Source of the DNA: an uncultured delta proteobacterium
Lineage (GTDB): Bacteria > Myxococcota_A > Polyangia > Polyangiales > JADJMO01
NCBI GenBank assembly: GCA_903923175.1
Contig: CAIXWQ010001095.1
Coordinates: forward strand, 1-55,466
Direction of reading: 5' to 3'
Length of the DNA stretch: 55,466 nucleotides
Shown here: positions 37,552-46,191 of the stretch, piece after piece
How the letters are laid out: each line of letters starts with the position of its first letter
Position numbering within the stretch: position 1 is the first letter of the stretch
Notes under the pieces: model-generated
Database searches by the model: none
What the model saw: the letters and a program-made list of their open reading frames with translations, nothing else
What the model was told of the DNA's origin: nothing
Made by a program: the position numbers and the translations under genes

Positions 37552-38949
37552 TCAGTGCGCGCAGCGCCCGCCGCTGGTGTTGACCCCGGTGAACTGGCAG
37601 GTGCCCGGCGCCCCGCCGGTCGGGTTGCAGCAGTAGTCCCAATTGCAGGAGTGGCCGCAGCTGCCGCAGTTGCTGCTGTCGTTCGTCGTGTCCACGCACG
37701 TCCCGCCGCACGTCGTGCCGGCGCAGGCGCCCGCGCACGATCCGCTCGTGCACATCCCGGGGAGCGGAGGGAAGCCGCCGCCCGGCGGGCACACCGTCGC
37801 GCAGGCGCCGCAGTTGAAGGCGTCGGTCTGCAGGTTCACGCAGACGCCGCCGCAGCTCGTGAAGCCCGTCGCGCAGCCGGTCACGACGCAGCTGCCCGCC
37901 TGGCACGCGCGCGTCGTCGTGGGGTCGCTCGCGCAGGGGGTGCCGCAGGCGCCGCAGTTCGCCGCGTCGCTCCCCTTCACGTTCGTCTCGCAGCTCCCAT
38001 CCGCGCTCGCGTCGCAATTGGCGTAGCCCGCTTTGCAGGTCGCCGCGCAGCTCCCCGAGGCGCAGCTCGCCGTCGCGTTCGCCGGTGCGGCGCACGCCTT
38101 GCCGCACGCGCCGCAATTCGCGAGGTCGCTCCGCGCGTCGATCTCGCAGCCGGTCGAGGCCTTGGCGTCGCAGTCGAGGAAGCCGGTGGTGCAGCTCGAG
38201 ATCGCGCACGCGCTCGCCGCGCAGCTCGCGCTCGCGACGTGTGGCGCGGACGCGCACGAGGCTCCGCACGCGCCGCAGTTGGCAGCGTCGCTGGTGAGAT
38301 CGGTCTTGCAGGAGCCGGCTGGATCGCCGGCGCACGTCGCCTTGCCGCTCGCGCAGGGCGGCTGGCAGCTGCCGTTGGTGCACACGAGGCCGGCGCCGCA
38401 CGCGGCGCTGCAGGCGCCGCAGTTGCGCGCGTCGTGCTGCAGATCGGTCTCGCACCCGGGCGTCGCGGCGTCGCAGTCCGCGTAGCCGGTCGCGCAGACC
38501 GCGCTGCAGGCGCCGCCCGCGCAGGCCGCGACCTGGTTCGCGGCGACGGGGCACGCGTCGCAGCGCGCGCCGCAGTGGGCCGGGTCGTCGTCGGCGACGC
38601 ATGCACCGGCGCAGCAGTGCTTCGCCGCGCCGCACGCGTTGCCGTCGGAGCCGCTCGGACACGGCGGCGGGGGCGCTTCCTCCGCCGTGTCGCTCGCCTC
38701 GCTCACGCTCGTGTCGTCGCCGCCGCCGTCCGAGGCCGTGTCCGGCGGGTCCGTCTCTGCGGTCGACGCGTCCGACGCGTCCGACGCGTCGTCGCCCGCC
38801 GAGGGGCTCACGCACTGCCCCGACACGTCGCAATACGTCCCCGAGCCGCACGTGCCGCCGCACGCCGACTGCACGCAGGCCGCGGCCGAGGCGCCCGCCG
38901 CGGTGACGAGACCGAGCCACAAACACGCGCAAATACGGCCCAAACGCAT
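37552..38949 (-). CDS. Secreted Cys-rich repeat protein (Stig1-like DxxNCGxCxxxC repeats)
   Basis: DPAHCGARC, DARNCGACSAAC, DAANCGACGASC, DLANCGACGKAC, DAANCGACGTPC, DAFNCGACATVC, DSSNCGSCGHSC; N-terminal signal peptide. Confidence 0.85.
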   Translation of the reverse strand: MRLGRICACLWLGLVTAAGASAAACVQSACGGTCGSGTYCDVSGQCVSPSAGDDASDASDASTAETDPPDTASDGGGDDTSVSEASDTAEEAPPPPCPSGSDGNACGAAKHCCAGACVADDDPAHCGARCDACPVAANQVAACAGGACSAVCATGYADCDAATPGCETDLQHDARNCGACSAACGAGLVCTNGSCQPPCASGKATCAGDPAGSCKTDLTSDAANCGACGASCASAPHVASASCAASACAISSCTTGFLDCDAKASTGCEIDARSDLANCGACGKACAAPANATASCASGSCAATCKAGYANCDASADGSCETNVKGSDAANCGACGTPCASDPTTTRACQAGSCVVTGCATGFTSCGGVCVNLQTDAFNCGACATVCPPGGGFPPLPGMCTSGSCAGACAGTTCGGTCVDTTNDSSNCGSCGHSCNWDYCCNPTGGAPGTCQFTGVNTSGGRCAH

Positions 38950-40813: not shown

Positions 40814-42010
40814 TCAGAACGCGTACGAGAGCCCGAGCCCGAAGCCCGGGCCGCCGCTGTGGAAGTCGCGCGCCTGGTAGGAGACGCGGCCGACCAGCGA
40901 GAAGCCCGCGCCGATCTTGCCGGCCCCCTCGACGAGGAGCCGCAGGCCGGTCTTCTGCGCGTGCGGCATGTCGGTGACCTCGATGGTCGGGCTGACGCGC
41001 CAGGCGTCGTGGCGGGCCAGATCGAGGCGCACGTAGCCGCGCGTGCCGAAGGTCTTGATGCTCTCGACGCCGACGACGAGCTTCTCGCCGAAGTAGTCGC
41101 CGATGTGGACGGCGACGCCGCCGCCGCCCGAGAAGCCGACCTCGGTGACGCTGGTGAGGGCCTCGACCGTGACGGCGAGCCCGTCGATGATCGCGAAGGT
41201 GCCGTGCGCGGCGCCGTAGTTGAGGCCGACGCTGTCGTCGGCGGGGTTGGGCCGCGCCGCGTTGCCGCGCACGATGCCGATGCGCACGCCGAAATCGATG
41301 ACGGCGATCAGCGGGCGATAGGTGTAGCCGGCCTCGGTGCGGAAGTAGTAGTCGGAGACCTTCTCGGTCTGCGCCTGCGCGAGCCCGCCGGTGCGATCGG
41401 TCTGCCCGAACGAGACGTAGTCGGCCGACGCGAACACCTCGCTGCGCTTGCCGCCCAGGCGGCTCAGCCAGGCCCCCTCGCGGGTGTCGGTGAGGTCCTC
41501 GGCGATGCCCACCACGAACGGCGCCTCGCGGCTCGCGAAGGCGCTGGCGCGCGCGCCGTCGTGGCGGACGACCTCGATGGTGTACGCGACGCTCGGCGCC
41601 TGGACGTCCTCGGCGGGGATCTCCGCGAGCCAGTGCTCGTTGGCGAGCTGGAAGGGGACCTCCTTGAACGCGCCGTCGCCGACGCGGTACGCGAGGACGA
41701 TCTGCTTCGCGAGGTGCGGGTCCTCGACGTCGGCCTGGATGCGCAGGGCCTCGTGGGCCGTCGCGCTCGAGGGCGGGGCGTGGTGCACGCGCGCGTCGAT
41801 CCGCGACACGTTCGGCGCGCTGGAGGTCGCCGCGCTCGGAGCGCTCGGCGCGCCGGGCCCGGTCGTCGTGGGGATCGCGCTCGGCGCGGGCGGGACGGGG
41901 ATCGAGACCGTCTCCTCGGCGCGGCCCGCCGTCGCGACGAGCAGGCTCGCCAGCGACGCCAGCGCGATCATCGCGTGCTGCGTTCGGTGCTTCGACGTGA
42001 GCGTTACCAT
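40814..42010 (-). CDS. Secreted Ig-like + putative outer-membrane beta-barrel protein (paralog B)
   Basis: Signal peptide; Ig-like HHAPP...LAYR...WLAEIP...VAYTIEV; amphipathic strands ending GLGLSYAF; ATG overlaps the upstream gene's stop region; GGGAG SD. Confidence 0.7.
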   Translation of the reverse strand: MVTLTSKHRTQHAMIALASLASLLVATAGRAEETVSIPVPPAPSAIPTTTGPGAPSAPSAATSSAPNVSRIDARVHHAPPSSATAHEALRIQADVEDPHLAKQIVLAYRVGDGAFKEVPFQLANEHWLAEIPAEDVQAPSVAYTIEVVRHDGARASAFASREAPFVVGIAEDLTDTREGAWLSRLGGKRSEVFASADYVSFGQTDRTGGLAQAQTEKVSDYYFRTEAGYTYRPLIAVIDFGVRIGIVRGNAARPNPADDSVGLNYGAAHGTFAIIDGLAVTVEALTSVTEVGFSGGGGVAVHIGDYFGEKLVVGVESIKTFGTRGYVRLDLARHDAWRVSPTIEVTDMPHAQKTGLRLLVEGAGKIGAGFSLVGRVSYQARDFHSGGPGFGLGLSYAF

Positions 42011-43752
42011 GAGAACGTCACTCCCATGCCGGCGCCGGGGCCGGAGTGGACGATGTTGCGCCCCTGGTACGAGCCCCGCAGGTACCAGGCGATGTTCTTC
42101 GACTGCCGGAAGCCGAACTGCACGATCGCGCGCACGCCGACGTCGGCCGCGGCGCCCGAGGGGACGACCGCGTTCTTGCCGGTCCCGGTCGTCTGATTCG
42201 CGAGGTCCGACGCGCTCGGCGTGACGCCGGCGGGCTGGTTGGTGACCTCGGTGCGCACCATGATCGGGAAGCGCGGGAACATGTTCAGCTCGATCTGCGT
42301 GATCCCTCGCAGGCCGATGCCGCCCAGGAATTCGCCGCCGATCATCAGGTTGGTGGCCTTGTCGTTGCCGAGGCGCACGAACACCTGGCCGCCGCCGTCG
42401 AGCCCGTTCTGACCGAGGCCGATCACGGCGCGGGTCACGAGCCCCCAGAAGTGGGTGAGCCCCCACTCCGCCTCGAGGAAGCCGTAGGTGAGCCCGACCT
42501 CGCGCGACGAGATCCCGAGCTTGTCGAGATCGTCGACCGAGCCGCCGTAGCCGCGGTAGACGCCGAGCCCCGAGCGCACCGCGCGCAGCCCCACGTCCTC
42601 GATGCGCATGCCGAAGTAGCCCTCGACCTGCAGCGCGTGATCGCCGCCCTTGTCGTTCGCGCGCAGGCGGTTGTAGTCGGCGTAGTCCATCCACAGCGCC
42701 GCGGTCGCCTCGTGCGGCTTCGGCGTCGAGGGGTTCATCGGCTCGACGATCTTCACCTCGCGCGGCGTGGCGGGGTCGCCCACGATCGCGACGGCCTTGC
42801 CGGAGGGGAGCACCCCCTGCACGAACCAGCGCAGCCGCGCGCCGGTCACGCGCGTCTCGGGGAGCGTCGCGACCCAGTAGCGCGGGCCGGCCGCCGTCAT
42901 CGTGATCGGCTGGAACGAGGCCTCGTCGTCGATCGCGCCGTAGAACACCGCGCCGGCGACGGGGCCGACCAGCTCGAGGCCGATCGACGCCGGGCGCCCT
43001 TTGAGCAGCTCGGTCGGCGCGCTCGCCGAGAGCACCTCGATGGTGTCGGCCTTCTTCTCGACGCGCGGCTCGCCCGTCTCGCGCAGCGCCGCGGCCTCCT
43101 CGAGCACCACGCGCGCGAAGCGGCTCTTGGGGTGCGCCTTGGCCCACGCCTCGTAGCGAAGGACGCGCGTCTCGGGCGCCGCGCCGCTCAAGTTCTCGAA
43201 GAGGATCGAGAGCTCGGTCGCGTCCTCGTCCTCCTTGGGCTCCTTGCAGGGCTCCTTGATCACCGTGATCACGCCCGGGCCTGCGCTCGTCGGCGCGGTC
43301 GCGGTCGCGGTCGGCTTCGCGGTCGTCGTCGGCTTCGTGATCGGCGTCGGGAGCGGAGCCACCACCACCGGCGTCCTGCCCGCGATCGTCACGACGTCGC
43401 CGGTCTCGACCGGCCGCAGCAGCGTGCCGGTGGGGCGCGCGAGCGAGAGCACGTCGCGCGCTTGGGAGATCTTGAGCTCGCCGATCTTGAAGCGATCGGT
43501 GATGAGCTTCCCCGTCACGGGGTGCTTCACCTTCATGGGGCGCCAGAGCTCGACGACGTCGCCGTCGCCGACCCCCTTCGCCTTGCCGAGATCGACGACG
43601 ACGTCGCCGCCGTCGAGGAGCAGCACCGTCCCCTCGAGGGGTGCGCCCGTCTGGGCTGCCGAAGGGGTGGTCGCGACCAGGAGCGCGATCGCGAGCGCCG
43701 CCGATATCGCCGTCGCGCCGCGTGCGAGCCTGCCGAAGGTTCGATTCCGCAT
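42004..43752 (-). CDS. Secreted FlgT_C-like + Ig-like + putative outer-membrane beta-barrel protein (paralog A)
   Basis: Signal peptide; VVVDLGKAKGVGDGDVVELWRP...HPVTG (FlgT C-terminal-like); Pro/Thr linker; barrel-like region ending GMGVTFSW. Confidence 0.7.
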   Translation of the reverse strand: MRNRTFGRLARGATAISAALAIALLVATTPSAAQTGAPLEGTVLLLDGGDVVVDLGKAKGVGDGDVVELWRPMKVKHPVTGKLITDRFKIGELKISQARDVLSLARPTGTLLRPVETGDVVTIAGRTPVVVAPLPTPITKPTTTAKPTATATAPTSAGPGVITVIKEPCKEPKEDEDATELSILFENLSGAAPETRVLRYEAWAKAHPKSRFARVVLEEAAALRETGEPRVEKKADTIEVLSASAPTELLKGRPASIGLELVGPVAGAVFYGAIDDEASFQPITMTAAGPRYWVATLPETRVTGARLRWFVQGVLPSGKAVAIVGDPATPREVKIVEPMNPSTPKPHEATAALWMDYADYNRLRANDKGGDHALQVEGYFGMRIEDVGLRAVRSGLGVYRGYGGSVDDLDKLGISSREVGLTYGFLEAEWGLTHFWGLVTRAVIGLGQNGLDGGGQVFVRLGNDKATNLMIGGEFLGGIGLRGITQIELNMFPRFPIMVRTEVTNQPAGVTPSASDLANQTTGTGKNAVVPSGAAADVGVRAIVQFGFRQSKNIAWYLRGSYQGRNIVHSGPGAGMGVTFSW

Positions 43753-44010
43753 CGTGACTCGCCACTAGGCAATGGCCGCGCCAACCGAATTCTCCGCTTT
43801 TCCTTCGCCGAGGGCCGGCCAGGCCCGTGGAACTTTTGCGTCGGTGTGGCGCCGCGACATCGGTCGACCGGTCGGAAGGTCCGTCCGGCGCGCTCGCCGA
43901 TGGGCGTTCGTTCGCCTTCGGCGCGAAATCCAGGCGTCGACGACGCACGGCACACATTTCTTTGTGGCCAGGGCCGCCGCCGGGCGGTGCGACCTGGTAG
44001 GCTCCGCCGG

Positions 44011-44808
44011 ATGTCCCGGGGCAAATACGCCCTCTTCGCCCTCGCCATCCTCGCGGTCTCCGCGCGGCCCGCGCACGCGCGCGCCAAGGCGGAGGAAGAG
44101 GCGAAATCCGAAGAAGAGAAGCCGAAATCGCCGCACCAGCAGCAGGCGTTCCAGCACTTCCTGCGCGCCCAGGAGCTGTACAAGCTCGGTCGCTACCGCG
44201 AGGCCATCGCGCGCCTCGAGGCCGCGGTGAAGCTCGATCCCGACGCGGCGGACCTCTGGTACAACCTCGGCGTCGTCCACGAGAAGCTCGGCGACGCCGA
44301 CGAAGCCATCGCGGCCTACGAGCGCTACCTGAAGCTGCTCGGGCCCGACGCCGACGCCGAGGAGCTGAAGCGGATCCGCGGCTTCATCCAGCGGCTCAAG
44401 GGCGCGCGCACCGACCTGAAGGATCGCGAGGCGAAGCGCATGGAGCACCGCTTCACGCCGCTGACCAGCACGCTCGCCATCAGCTGCGCGATCTCGCTCG
44501 CGGCGACCGGCGTGTTCTCGTACCTCGCGCTGCACGACGACCGCGCCGCCCGCGATTTCCTGGTCGGCAGCGGCGGCTCGCTCAACGGGCGCGCCGCGCT
44601 CGTGAACCGCGCGCGCACCGAGGGGGTGCTCGCCGACGTCTTCGGCACGGTGGCCCTCGCCACCGGCACCGCGGCGTTCACGCTCTACTTCACCTCCGAG
44701 TTCGCCAAAGAGGACGACGTGCGCGAGCTGCCGCCGCGCAAGGTCGGCTGGCTCGGCGTGACGCCGCTCCCGGGCGGCGGCACGGTGCAGCTCGGGATGG
44801 TGTTCTAG
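44011..44808 (+). CDS. Secreted TPR protein
   Basis: Signal peptide; TPR AQELYKLGRYREAIARLEAAVKLDP...LWYNLGVVHEKLG..DEAIAAYERYL; two hydrophobic segments; ends QLGMVF. Confidence 0.85.
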   Translation: MSRGKYALFALAILAVSARPAHARAKAEEEAKSEEEKPKSPHQQQAFQHFLRAQELYKLGRYREAIARLEAAVKLDPDAADLWYNLGVVHEKLGDADEAIAAYERYLKLLGPDADAEELKRIRGFIQRLKGARTDLKDREAKRMEHRFTPLTSTLAISCAISLAATGVFSYLALHDDRAARDFLVGSGGSLNGRAALVNRARTEGVLADVFGTVALATGTAAFTLYFTSEFAKEDDVRELPPRKVGWLGVTPLPGGGTVQLGMVF

Positions 44809-46191
44809 ATGCAGCTCGCGCGCTTCCCCGCCCTGCGCCGCGTCGCCGCGGGCTCGCTCCTCGCGCTGGTCGTGGGCGCCGTGCTGGCCTTTGCGCCCGC
44901 GTGCCAGCTCGCGCTCAACGCCTCCGACGCCGACCCGCGCTGCGATCTGCCGAACGGGACGCCCTGCGGCGACGGCACCATCTGCGTCGGCGGCGTCTGC
45001 TCCACCTGCAAGCCGCAGCCGGAGCTCTGCAACGGCCTCGACGACGACTGCGACGGCGTCGTCGACAACGGCTTCGATCTCGACGGCGACGGCTACAGCA
45101 CCTGCGTGCTCGACAAGACGCAGTTCGACTGCAACGACGACCCCGCCACCGGCGCGAGCATCCACCCGGGCGCGCCCGAGGTCTGCAACGGCTTCGACGA
45201 CAACTGCAACGGCAAGACCGACGAAGAGCCCAACGACTGCAGCGGCAAGGGGCTCGAGTGCTGGAGCGACCGCTCCCGGTGCGTCGCGCGCGGCGACTGC
45301 CGCCTCCACGGCTGCACCTCGGGCGGCTGCAACGCCGAGACGGGGCAGTGCACGTCGGCGGACTGCGTCCAGCTCGGGAGCTGCTCCGATCCGACCACGC
45401 GCTGCGATCCCAAGACGCGCACCTGCGTGAAGATCGCCAAGCTCGGCGACTCGTGCGACACGACCATCCTCTGCGACACCGGGCAGGGGCAGTGCGTCGG
45501 CGCCGACGTGCTCGGGCTGACCGGGAAGACCGGCTCGGTCTGCTCCACGTCCTGCTGCTCGACCGACCAGTGCGCGGCGGGGTTCATCTGCCGCGCCACC
45601 GGCAACGGCGCCTCGATGTGCGTGAAGGCGGCCGACGCCGGGCTCACCCTCGGCACCAAGGTCGTCCTGGCCGCGTGCAACGGCGGCGCCGAGTGCCGGA
45701 GCGGCGTGTGCGTGTCGGGCGCCTGCAGCGACGTCTGCTGCGCGAGCCCGACCTGCGGCGCCAGCGGCTCGTGCTCGATGCGCTCGGGCGACCACGACTT
45801 CGTCTGCCGCCCGAGCTCGGCGACGGGGAGCTACAACAGCTCCTGCTCGACCAGCTCGACCTGCAAGAGCGGGCTCTGCCTGTACCAGTCCTGGTGCACG
45901 AAGCACTGCTGCACGTCGGCCGACTGCAGCGCCGAGGATCGCTGCGAGACGACCGTGGTCGGCGGCGCGCTGGTCGCGTTCTGCCAGCCGCTGAACTGGA
46001 GCGAGACGGTCGGCACCAAGCTCGGCGGCGACGGCTGCGGGGTCGACTCCGACTGCCGCAGCGGGCACTGCATCTCGGGCCACTGCGACGACACCTGCTG
46101 CAAGGACTCCGACTGCGTCGGCGGCGCGCTGTGCCTCCCCAAGAAGGACGCGACCGGCTACCCGATGCACTGTCAGATCCCGGCGCAGTGA
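44809..46191 (+). CDS. Cys-rich lipoprotein with MopE-like putative metal-binding motifs
   Basis: ELCNGLDDDCDGVVD, DLDGDGY, DCNDD...IHPGAPEVCNGFDDNCNGKTDE; many C-x5-C repeats; starts right after the TPR gene's TAG. Confidence 0.8.
   Translation: MQLARFPALRRVAAGSLLALVVGAVLAFAPACQLALNASDADPRCDLPNGTPCGDGTICVGGVCSTCKPQPELCNGLDDDCDGVVDNGFDLDGDGYSTCVLDKTQFDCNDDPATGASIHPGAPEVCNGFDDNCNGKTDEEPNDCSGKGLECWSDRSRCVARGDCRLHGCTSGGCNAETGQCTSADCVQLGSCSDPTTRCDPKTRTCVKIAKLGDSCDTTILCDTGQGQCVGADVLGLTGKTGSVCSTSCCSTDQCAAGFICRATGNGASMCVKAADAGLTLGTKVVLAACNGGAECRSGVCVSGACSDVCCASPTCGASGSCSMRSGDHDFVCRPSSATGSYNSSCSTSSTCKSGLCLYQSWCTKHCCTSADCSAEDRCETTVVGGALVAFCQPLNWSETVGTKLGGDGCGVDSDCRSGHCISGHCDDTCCKDSDCVGGALCLPKKDATGYPMHCQIPAQ

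Follow-up and report, generated by a model that had tools for sequence, protein, structure and literature searches.

A co-translated pair of paralogous β-barrel proteins, predicted for the outer membrane and conserved in Myxococcota

We analysed two overlapping genes, here called A and B, on a 55,466-nucleotide contig (CAIXWQ010001095.1; this whole stretch is referred to below as the window) of an uncultured delta proteobacterium of the Polyangiales (assembly GCA_903923175.1, 10.7 Mb over 1,422 contigs). The earlier note on this DNA had proposed that A and B are translationally coupled, paralogous outer-membrane β-barrel proteins, and both genes were found where it had placed them, overlapping on the minus strand. 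The window has a G+C content of ~72%, and the G+C content at third codon positions (GC3; Table 1) identifies the minus-strand frames as the coding frames; the list of open reading frames (ORFs), read together with GC3, showed the many long ORFs in other frames to be high-GC shadows. The B frame itself stays open upstream through all of gene A, so that a shadow ORF of 1047 aa results (40814–43957, minus strand).

Table 1 Features of the A–B locus. Coordinates are positions in the window and residues are those of the precursor; AF2, AlphaFold2; pLDDT, predicted local distance difference test score.
Feature	Coordinates	Strand	Residues	Description
Gene A	42004–43752	−	582-aa precursor	Order: signal peptide, small β domain, Pro/Thr linker, three helices, β-sandwich, 12-stranded barrel; ORF and translation, GC3 0.96, AF2 pLDDT 82.1
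A signal peptide	43654–43752	−	~1–33	MRNRTFGRLARGATAISAALAIALLVATTPSAA, putative cleavage before Q; from sequence; disordered in AF2
A N-terminal small β domain	43384–43638	−	39–123	AF2 strands, pLDDT 86–94
A Pro/Thr linker	43240–43374	−	127–171	Disordered, pLDDT <50; variable length and sequence
A three-helix segment	43072–43227	−	176–227	YEAWAKAHPKSRFA...; AF2 helices 176–188, 193–206 and 213–227
A β-sandwich (Ig-like)	42745–43038	−	239–336	AF2 pLDDT 88–95; aligned to the B sandwich by hhalign
A 12-stranded barrel	42007–42711	−	348–582	Strands 348–581; ends GVTFSW
A/B junction	42004–42010	−		ATGGTAA, 7 nt; B start codon over the last Trp codon and stop of A
Gene B	40814–42010	−	398-aa precursor	Order: signal peptide, Pro/Ser/Ala linker, β-sandwich, charged helix, 12-stranded barrel; ORF and translation, GC3 0.98, AF2 pLDDT 86.4
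B signal peptide	41918–42010	−	~1–31	...MIALASLASLLVATAGRA, putative cleavage before EE; AF2 helix 7–28
B β-sandwich (Ig-like)	41501–41791	−	74–170	Opens with conserved HHAP motif; AF2 pLDDT 93–98
B charged helix and GGRRS motif	41444–41494	−	173–189	Just before strand 1; AF2 helix 173–184
B 12-stranded barrel	40817–41443	−	190–398	Strands 190–397; ends LSYAF
A-upstream intergenic region	43753–44010			258 bp, divergent
TPR gene	44011–44808	+	265 aa	Signal peptide, two hydrophobic C-terminal segments, terminal Phe
Cys-rich gene	44809–46191	+	460 aa	MopE metal-binding motifs; abuts the TPR gene

A and B resemble each other well beyond chance. BLASTP aligned A292–582 with B126–398 at 21% identity (E 3e-12), and profiles built from 49 A-family sequences (alignment A2) and 48 B-family sequences (alignment A1; 97 members in total) were matched by hhalign with a probability of 99.6% over 309 columns, or ~300 residues (E 1.1e-23). 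The region common to both comprises the β-sandwich and the entire C-terminal barrel region, and the sequence blocks that the earlier note had paired are present in the alignments. The proteins are asymmetric elsewhere, the N-terminal arm being found only in A and the charged helix with its GGRRS motif only in B. A maximum-likelihood tree built from the region common to 24 A and 24 B sequences placed A and B in separate clades with support of 100/99. As the pair also occurs in distant lineages, this split indicates that the duplication is older than the sampled Myxococcota lineages and that both copies have been co-inherited since; the two genes were subsequently duplicated again together.

Conserved in both paralogues across all sampled clades (at least 85%) were D371, E377, R383, R541, R559 and R565 (A numbering); Y423 and T504 were also among the conserved barrel residues other than Gly and Pro in both. 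No Ser or His conserved across both paralogues and all clades sampled was found. A Ser/His/acid enzyme triad in the barrel, at the B rim motifs LTSVTE and EVTDMPHA, was considered and rejected, as S287, T289 and H350 are unconserved in distant B-type proteins.

The stop codon of A could be placed at 64 loci, and at 61 of these it overlaps the start of B, as ATGGTGA (46), ATGGTAA (14) or ATGGTAG (1). Ahead of its terminal Trp, A has any of several residues (Q, E, T, S, A or R), yet the codon at that position, which supplies the first base of the ATG, ends in A at 62 of the 64 loci (CAA, GAA, ACA, TCA, GCA and CGA), compared with 7.8% elsewhere in the gene. Selection thus keeps the overlapping ATG in place, which identifies the true B start and implies translational coupling. 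Coupling had been proposed from one sequence; with the ATG preserved by synonymous codons at 61–62 of 64 loci, it is now far better supported. A and B would then be made together from one mRNA, favouring a fixed ratio. A conserved Shine–Dalgarno sequence before the overlapping ATG was discounted: a GGAG-like word at −16 to −7 was present at only 9 of 61 loci, and the G-richness upstream of the ATG is a result of Gly codons. The ATGGTRA junction is also a clean natural case of synonymous-codon selection preserving translational coupling.

A scan of species-representative genomes yielded 68 loci, mostly from metagenome-assembled genomes (MAGs) of Polyangiaceae but including the cultured Polyangium fumosum DSM 14668 and two Polyangium sp. 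isolates. An A homologue lay directly upstream of B in nearly every locus with enough upstream DNA. The pair was present in 7 of 8 genomes of the window's own family and in 4 of ~32 genomes from other families of the order, and an even sample of the phylum gave a match (E ≤1e-10) in 22 of 151 genomes, including families of other classes at 25–35% identity. The only own-family genome without a B match (G001, from the window's genus; 6.1 Mb, 87% complete) probably reflects an assembly gap and not loss. Two further homologues from metagenomes, at 28–30% identity, retain an A gene directly upstream, and the one whose contig holds a complete A gene keeps all A domains. Conservation of the gene pair across Myxococcota, which the earlier note had put forward as a check, is therefore strong.

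Four distant loci were fetched, of which two are arranged A–B and two A–B–A′–B′. The doubled loci (L081 and L082) belong to genomes G147 and G181 of family f26; as both pairs occur in both genomes, duplication of the unit preceded the divergence of these genera. One 806-aa protein (P0298) looked like a natural A–B fusion; it is an A homologue that shifts frame into B, and hence a product of frameshift read-through and not a true fusion. The open B frame across A gives rise to chimeric gene calls of this kind in public data.

Around the pair, nothing else is retained. The TPR, Cys-rich, PF10118, MerR and PriA neighbours were absent from the related loci of the species-representative scan, apart from the window's own genome, and clustering of all flank ORFs gave no recurrent family beyond A and B, from which we conclude that the module consists of these two genes alone. 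The divergent TPR and Cys-rich pair upstream of A does exist as the earlier note had described it, but a functional link between it and A–B is not borne out by these comparisons. A Ser/Thr kinase occurred at 15 of 62 loci and is probably myxobacterial background.

AlphaFold2 with the family alignments gave confident monomers for both proteins (Table 1), each with 12 C-terminal strands following the signal peptide and sandwich, in agreement with the roughly 12 amphipathic strands originally noted in each; that the barrels close, and where the N-terminal domains would lie, was deduced from secondary structure and fold matches. The strands were indeed amphipathic, with outward-facing residues averaging +1.2 and +1.4 on the Kyte–Doolittle scale and the more conserved inward-facing residues −0.7 and −0.8. 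Foldseek searches of the PDB (E ≤1e-3) returned outer-membrane barrels only, for A and B alike, so that the models are of membrane type. For B, the matches included KdgM (4fqe; TMt 0.77 at an r.m.s.d. of 4.2 Å), VhGalP (0.63) and FapF (0.56); for A, KdgM (4fqe; 0.72), NanC (0.64) and PcoB (0.57). The best geometric fits for both were the 12-stranded porins KdgM and NanC, while EstA, NalP and FapF were also among the matches, with lower TM scores.

The aromatic C-termini remarked on previously are W582 in A, which is invariant, and F398 in B, which is at least 90% conserved in the family alignment; in deeper clades, the last residue is W in 22 of 24 A-types and F in 21 of 24 B-types. Both precursors carry the features of a Sec signal as read from sequence (a basic n-region, a hydrophobic core and small residues at −3/−1), and the signal peptide of A has no lipobox cysteine. 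Taken together, A and B very probably form a co-translated pair of paralogous outer-membrane barrels, Sec-exported and of the type inserted by the β-barrel assembly machinery (BAM), with their localisation predicted from the models and these signatures.

Neither protein maps to a characterised family, as had been anticipated. Searches of Pfam and NCBIfam with A and B, with their isolated domains and with the 97 family members gave no significant match, nor did sequence-profile searches of the PDB with A and B. The hints were all sub-threshold (ExtJ, E 3e-4; OMP_b-brl, E 0.002; OpA60, E 0.05; and FlgT_C), the sole recurrent one being FlgT_C on the N-terminal domain of A. More than 200 homologues of A and ~160 of B were retrieved, all named ‘hypothetical protein’ and, where their source is named, from Polyangiaceae, Polyangiales, Myxococcales or ‘Deltaproteobacteria’ MAGs. 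The idea of a homologue in a model organism was dropped after a third homologue search, started from a distant clade, retrieved nothing but proteins of uncultured MAGs. Few classes of bacterial protein are as well catalogued as outer-membrane barrels, yet this family has hundreds of members and no Pfam, NCBIfam or PDB relative.

The structural matches raise the question of a solute channel, in which one or both barrels would form a narrow KdgM- or NanC-like pore for anionic or acidic-sugar substrates, with the sandwiches binding the substrate or handing it over. The KdgM/NanC porins (4fqe, 4pr7, 2wjq, 8xua) share with A and B 12 antiparallel strands, ~210 residues, short loops and a charged, Arg-rich interior, and besides being the closest geometric fits (with VhGalP next for B) they are consistent with the high conservation of inward-facing residues and with the four Arg conserved in both paralogues. 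However, there is no detectable sequence relationship, as Pfam KdgM had no match at E ≤1 among A, B or the 97 family members, and the conserved Asp and Glu of the lumen could simply pair with the Arg. KdgM-type porins are single-domain, singly encoded proteins that work alone, whereas A and B bear sizeable N-terminal modules and are found solely as a coupled pair; a porin needs neither an obligate coupled paralogue nor a long tethered arm, and flank clustering revealed no conserved uptake or catabolic neighbour. We therefore regard a solute channel as rather unlikely.

The additional parts of A that had been described before (a β domain, a Pro/Thr linker and a helical segment) are all present in the AlphaFold2 model. 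The β domain is the best-conserved part of the protein (60% mean identity); it carries the motif ELWRP..KHPVTGK..DRF.IG, and W70, R71, P72, P78, D86, G91 and Q97 are invariant in alignment A2. Its likeness to FlgT_C (PF16538), also claimed previously, is weakly supported: 12 of 49 family members match, all under the Pfam cut-off, with E 0.079 and 13.8 bits for A of the window against a cut-off of 27, and E 2e-4 for the best family member. The linker is the least-conserved part (27% identity, 54% column occupancy), while the three-helix segment is retained even in a 28%-identical homologue.

In the A barrel, the connections between successive strands are 12, 4, 13, 4, 4, 4, 3, 7, 34, 4 and 5 residues long, the one 34-residue loop spanning 505–538. 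Alternation of long loops with short turns is the canonical pattern of barrels with both termini in the periplasm. With an even number of strands, and with the long connections of A (12, 13 and 34) all odd-numbered and alternating with short ones of 3–7 residues, both termini would be periplasmic and the β-sandwiches would hang beneath the barrels. The N-terminal modules are thus predicted to lie in the periplasm, unless they pass through the barrel in autotransporter fashion. A role as an adhesin, which the earlier note had offered as one possibility, becomes unlikely if the termini are periplasmic, as the outward-facing connections of the modelled B barrel are just 2–9 residues long.

In B, a disordered Pro/Ser/Ala stretch reaches to ~residue 70 and is followed by the sandwich, in which H77, P132 and Y143 are invariant (alignment A1). 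The charged helix is an insertion relative to A in the hhalign alignment, and A has no equivalent; it is 12 residues long, ends 5 residues before strand 1, and lies in a region of 57% identity in which E178 and R189 are invariant and D175, R177, A180 and R184 are at least 90% conserved. Connections between the strands of the B barrel are very short throughout the model. Two B-type homologues depart from this plan: P0246, of 529 aa, has two tandem sandwich domains ahead of the barrel, and P0322 has a stretch of ~130 Asp/Ser-rich, acidic residues instead of the linker. The N-terminal part of B-type proteins thus appears modular.

The sandwich itself, modelled in A and B as an all-β unit of ~100 aa, also occurs outside the pair. 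Matches to the B profile (~33–160) were found as 7–25 tandem copies in giant proteins of 2000–4000 aa (P0243, P0258, P0267, P0268 and others); P0243, the one giant scanned, also carries Beta_helix, PKD and P_proprotein domains. The Big_7 and GlgE_dom_N_S profiles had no match on the isolated A and B sandwiches, and in giants with 10–20 copies they match overlapping stretches weakly. Judged from sequence comparison, the tandem repeat looks like an undescribed Ig-like family. The sole other copy of the domain found in the window's own genome (contig C242, locus L007, 994–1986, plus strand; E 1.2e-7 to the B profile) lies in a 330-aa protein with a signal peptide, TPR-like helices, the sandwich and a C-terminal transmembrane anchor.

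These features bear on an autotransporter-like arrangement, in which the B sandwich, perhaps with all N-terminal parts of A as well, would be threaded through the barrel to the cell surface, with the B helix lying in the pore (the type Va arrangement) or acting as a plug (as in FapF). B has its parts in the same order as type Va autotransporters (signal peptide, domain, helix and 12-stranded C-terminal barrel), and EstA (3kvn), NalP (1uyn) and FapF (5o67, 5o68) likewise place a 12-stranded C-terminal barrel after a helix and soluble N-terminal parts. EstA, a full-length autotransporter, was the top Foldseek match by E-value for B (3.1e-6) and the second for A; the B helix is charged and strongly conserved, and the sandwich type is frequent in giant proteins that are likely to be extracellular. 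Yet TM scores were low for autotransporter barrels (0.23–0.48) and low to moderate with FapF included (up to 0.56), and Pfam Autotransporter (PF03797) had no match among A, B and the 97 members, one A-family protein matching YadA_anchor at E 0.14. At ~12 residues, the B helix is short for spanning a barrel; A lacks a helix before its barrel, and its β domain is its most conserved part, an uncommon property for regions exposed at the surface. A small sandwich, and not a β-helix, would be the passenger. FapF, with a plug helix and N-terminal parts in the periplasm, is a homotrimer encoded within a dedicated operon, unlike A and B. We consider export of the N-terminal modules through the barrels quite improbable.

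Their coupling, strict co-inheritance, duplication as a unit and complementary extra parts lead us to propose that A and B probably assemble with each other. Paralogues locked together by an overlapping start and stop since before the sampled Myxococcota lineages split would be a strong sign of an obligate hetero-complex; to our knowledge, hetero-oligomeric barrel assemblies are rare. Linkage could instead reflect shared regulation after a tandem duplication, with A and B co-expressed yet acting as independent outer-membrane proteins, and it is the case that AlphaFold2 predicts each monomer confidently alone. However, tandem duplicates with separate roles usually disappear or become unlinked in some lineages, whereas here order, adjacency and the overlapping start and stop persist at 25–30% identity, the pair has been re-duplicated as a unit, and each paralogue has its own complementary, lineage-specific part (the arm in A, the helix in B). 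Independent function is, in our assessment, very improbable.

The closest functional precedent for such an assembly comes from the same phylum, in the adjacent genes for paralogous outer-membrane barrels GltA/GltB (and NfsA/NfsB). GltA (256 aa) and GltB (275 aa) of Myxococcus xanthus are integral outer-membrane β-barrels encoded by adjacent genes, for which mutual stabilisation and direct interaction have been shown; their barrel domain is OmpA-like, and they bind GltC, a TPR protein, and belong to a larger conserved cluster (PMC4488436). Mutual stabilisation and direct interaction are the behaviour that we propose for A and B. GltA and GltB differ in being shorter and OmpA-like and in lacking a sandwich, whereas A and B have 12-stranded KdgM-like barrels, N-terminal modules and no conserved neighbours; this distinction is drawn from published descriptions of GltA and GltB. 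No OmpA-type Pfam match was found for A, B or the 97 family members, and the related loci of the species-representative scan lack the window's TPR gene. A and B thus constitute a new family, whose barrels are structurally KdgM/NanC-like and which, as far as these comparisons go, belongs neither to KdgM/NanC nor to GltA/GltB.

We favour the view that the pair is an anchoring or scaffold platform of the outer membrane, an obligate complex of two different barrels, closed or narrowly gated, that carry periplasmic modules; as a whole, we see this statement as evenly balanced between right and wrong. BAM would insert both proteins by way of the aromatic residues conserved at their C-termini (W for A, F for B), after which the obligate hetero-complex would form. 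A conserved network of Arg, Glu and Asp would line the barrel interiors, with the charged helix of B in the position expected of a plug or rim helix. The arm of A (the helices, the linker of ~45 residues and the β domain) could then reach the cell wall, the inner membrane or some periplasmic partner.

Within this platform, the role as a periplasmic scaffold or tether is tentative, and we give it somewhat less than an even chance. It is preferred to a surface adhesin because of the conserved tethered domain of A, the short B connections and the occurrence of the sandwich in an inner-membrane-anchored protein, and a periplasmic arm agrees with the slight resemblance to FlgT_C, a domain that belongs to a periplasmic protein. 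FlgT is associated with the outer membrane; no flagellar genes occur in the A–B context, and the A-domain matches to its C-terminal domain are weak only. On these grounds, neither a general porin nor an adhesin seems the favoured description of the pair.

Several observations weigh against the platform. The outer faces of strands 1–4 are weakly hydrophobic, and both the contact between A and B and their outer-membrane localisation are predicted. KdgM and NanC, the best structural matches, form open channels, and a basic, conserved lumen would also be in keeping with a channel for anions or acidic sugars. The layout of B (N-terminal domain, helix and 12-stranded barrel) fits a classical autotransporter equally well, with the domain outside the cell, and the same type of sandwich is common in the giant, probably extracellular proteins.

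A more elaborate possibility, which we think unlikely, is that the pair is an undescribed heteromeric outer-membrane machine restricted to Myxococcota, combining a helix-gated barrel (B) with an arm-bearing barrel (A) as a gated export or anchoring device, in effect a two-protein relative of autotransporters and FapF. If so, a machine without dedicated neighbours would be more than two membrane anchors.

Whichever function applies, A and B are probably an unstudied two-part envelope complex. GltA/GltB, which are central to gliding motility, are the best-studied myxobacterial case of such paired barrels, and the Polyangia attract interest for their natural products and predation. Defining what A and B anchor or transport would add a new component to the poorly known Polyangia envelope.

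As to the surroundings of the pair in the window, the promoter of the A–B operon presumably lies within the divergent intergenic region upstream of A (Table 1). A scan of this region for sigma-70-type promoters gave no match, and the sigma-70 promoter and intrinsic terminator scans yielded nothing meaningful. Neither the TPR and MopE-like Cys-rich genes nor a second Cys-rich gene at 37552–38949 is conserved beside A–B elsewhere. Downstream, a PF10118 metal-hydrolase gene converges on B; the second Cys-rich gene (minus strand), located 2 kb past the MerR gene, encodes a secreted protein of 465 aa with Stig1/CPL1-like matches.

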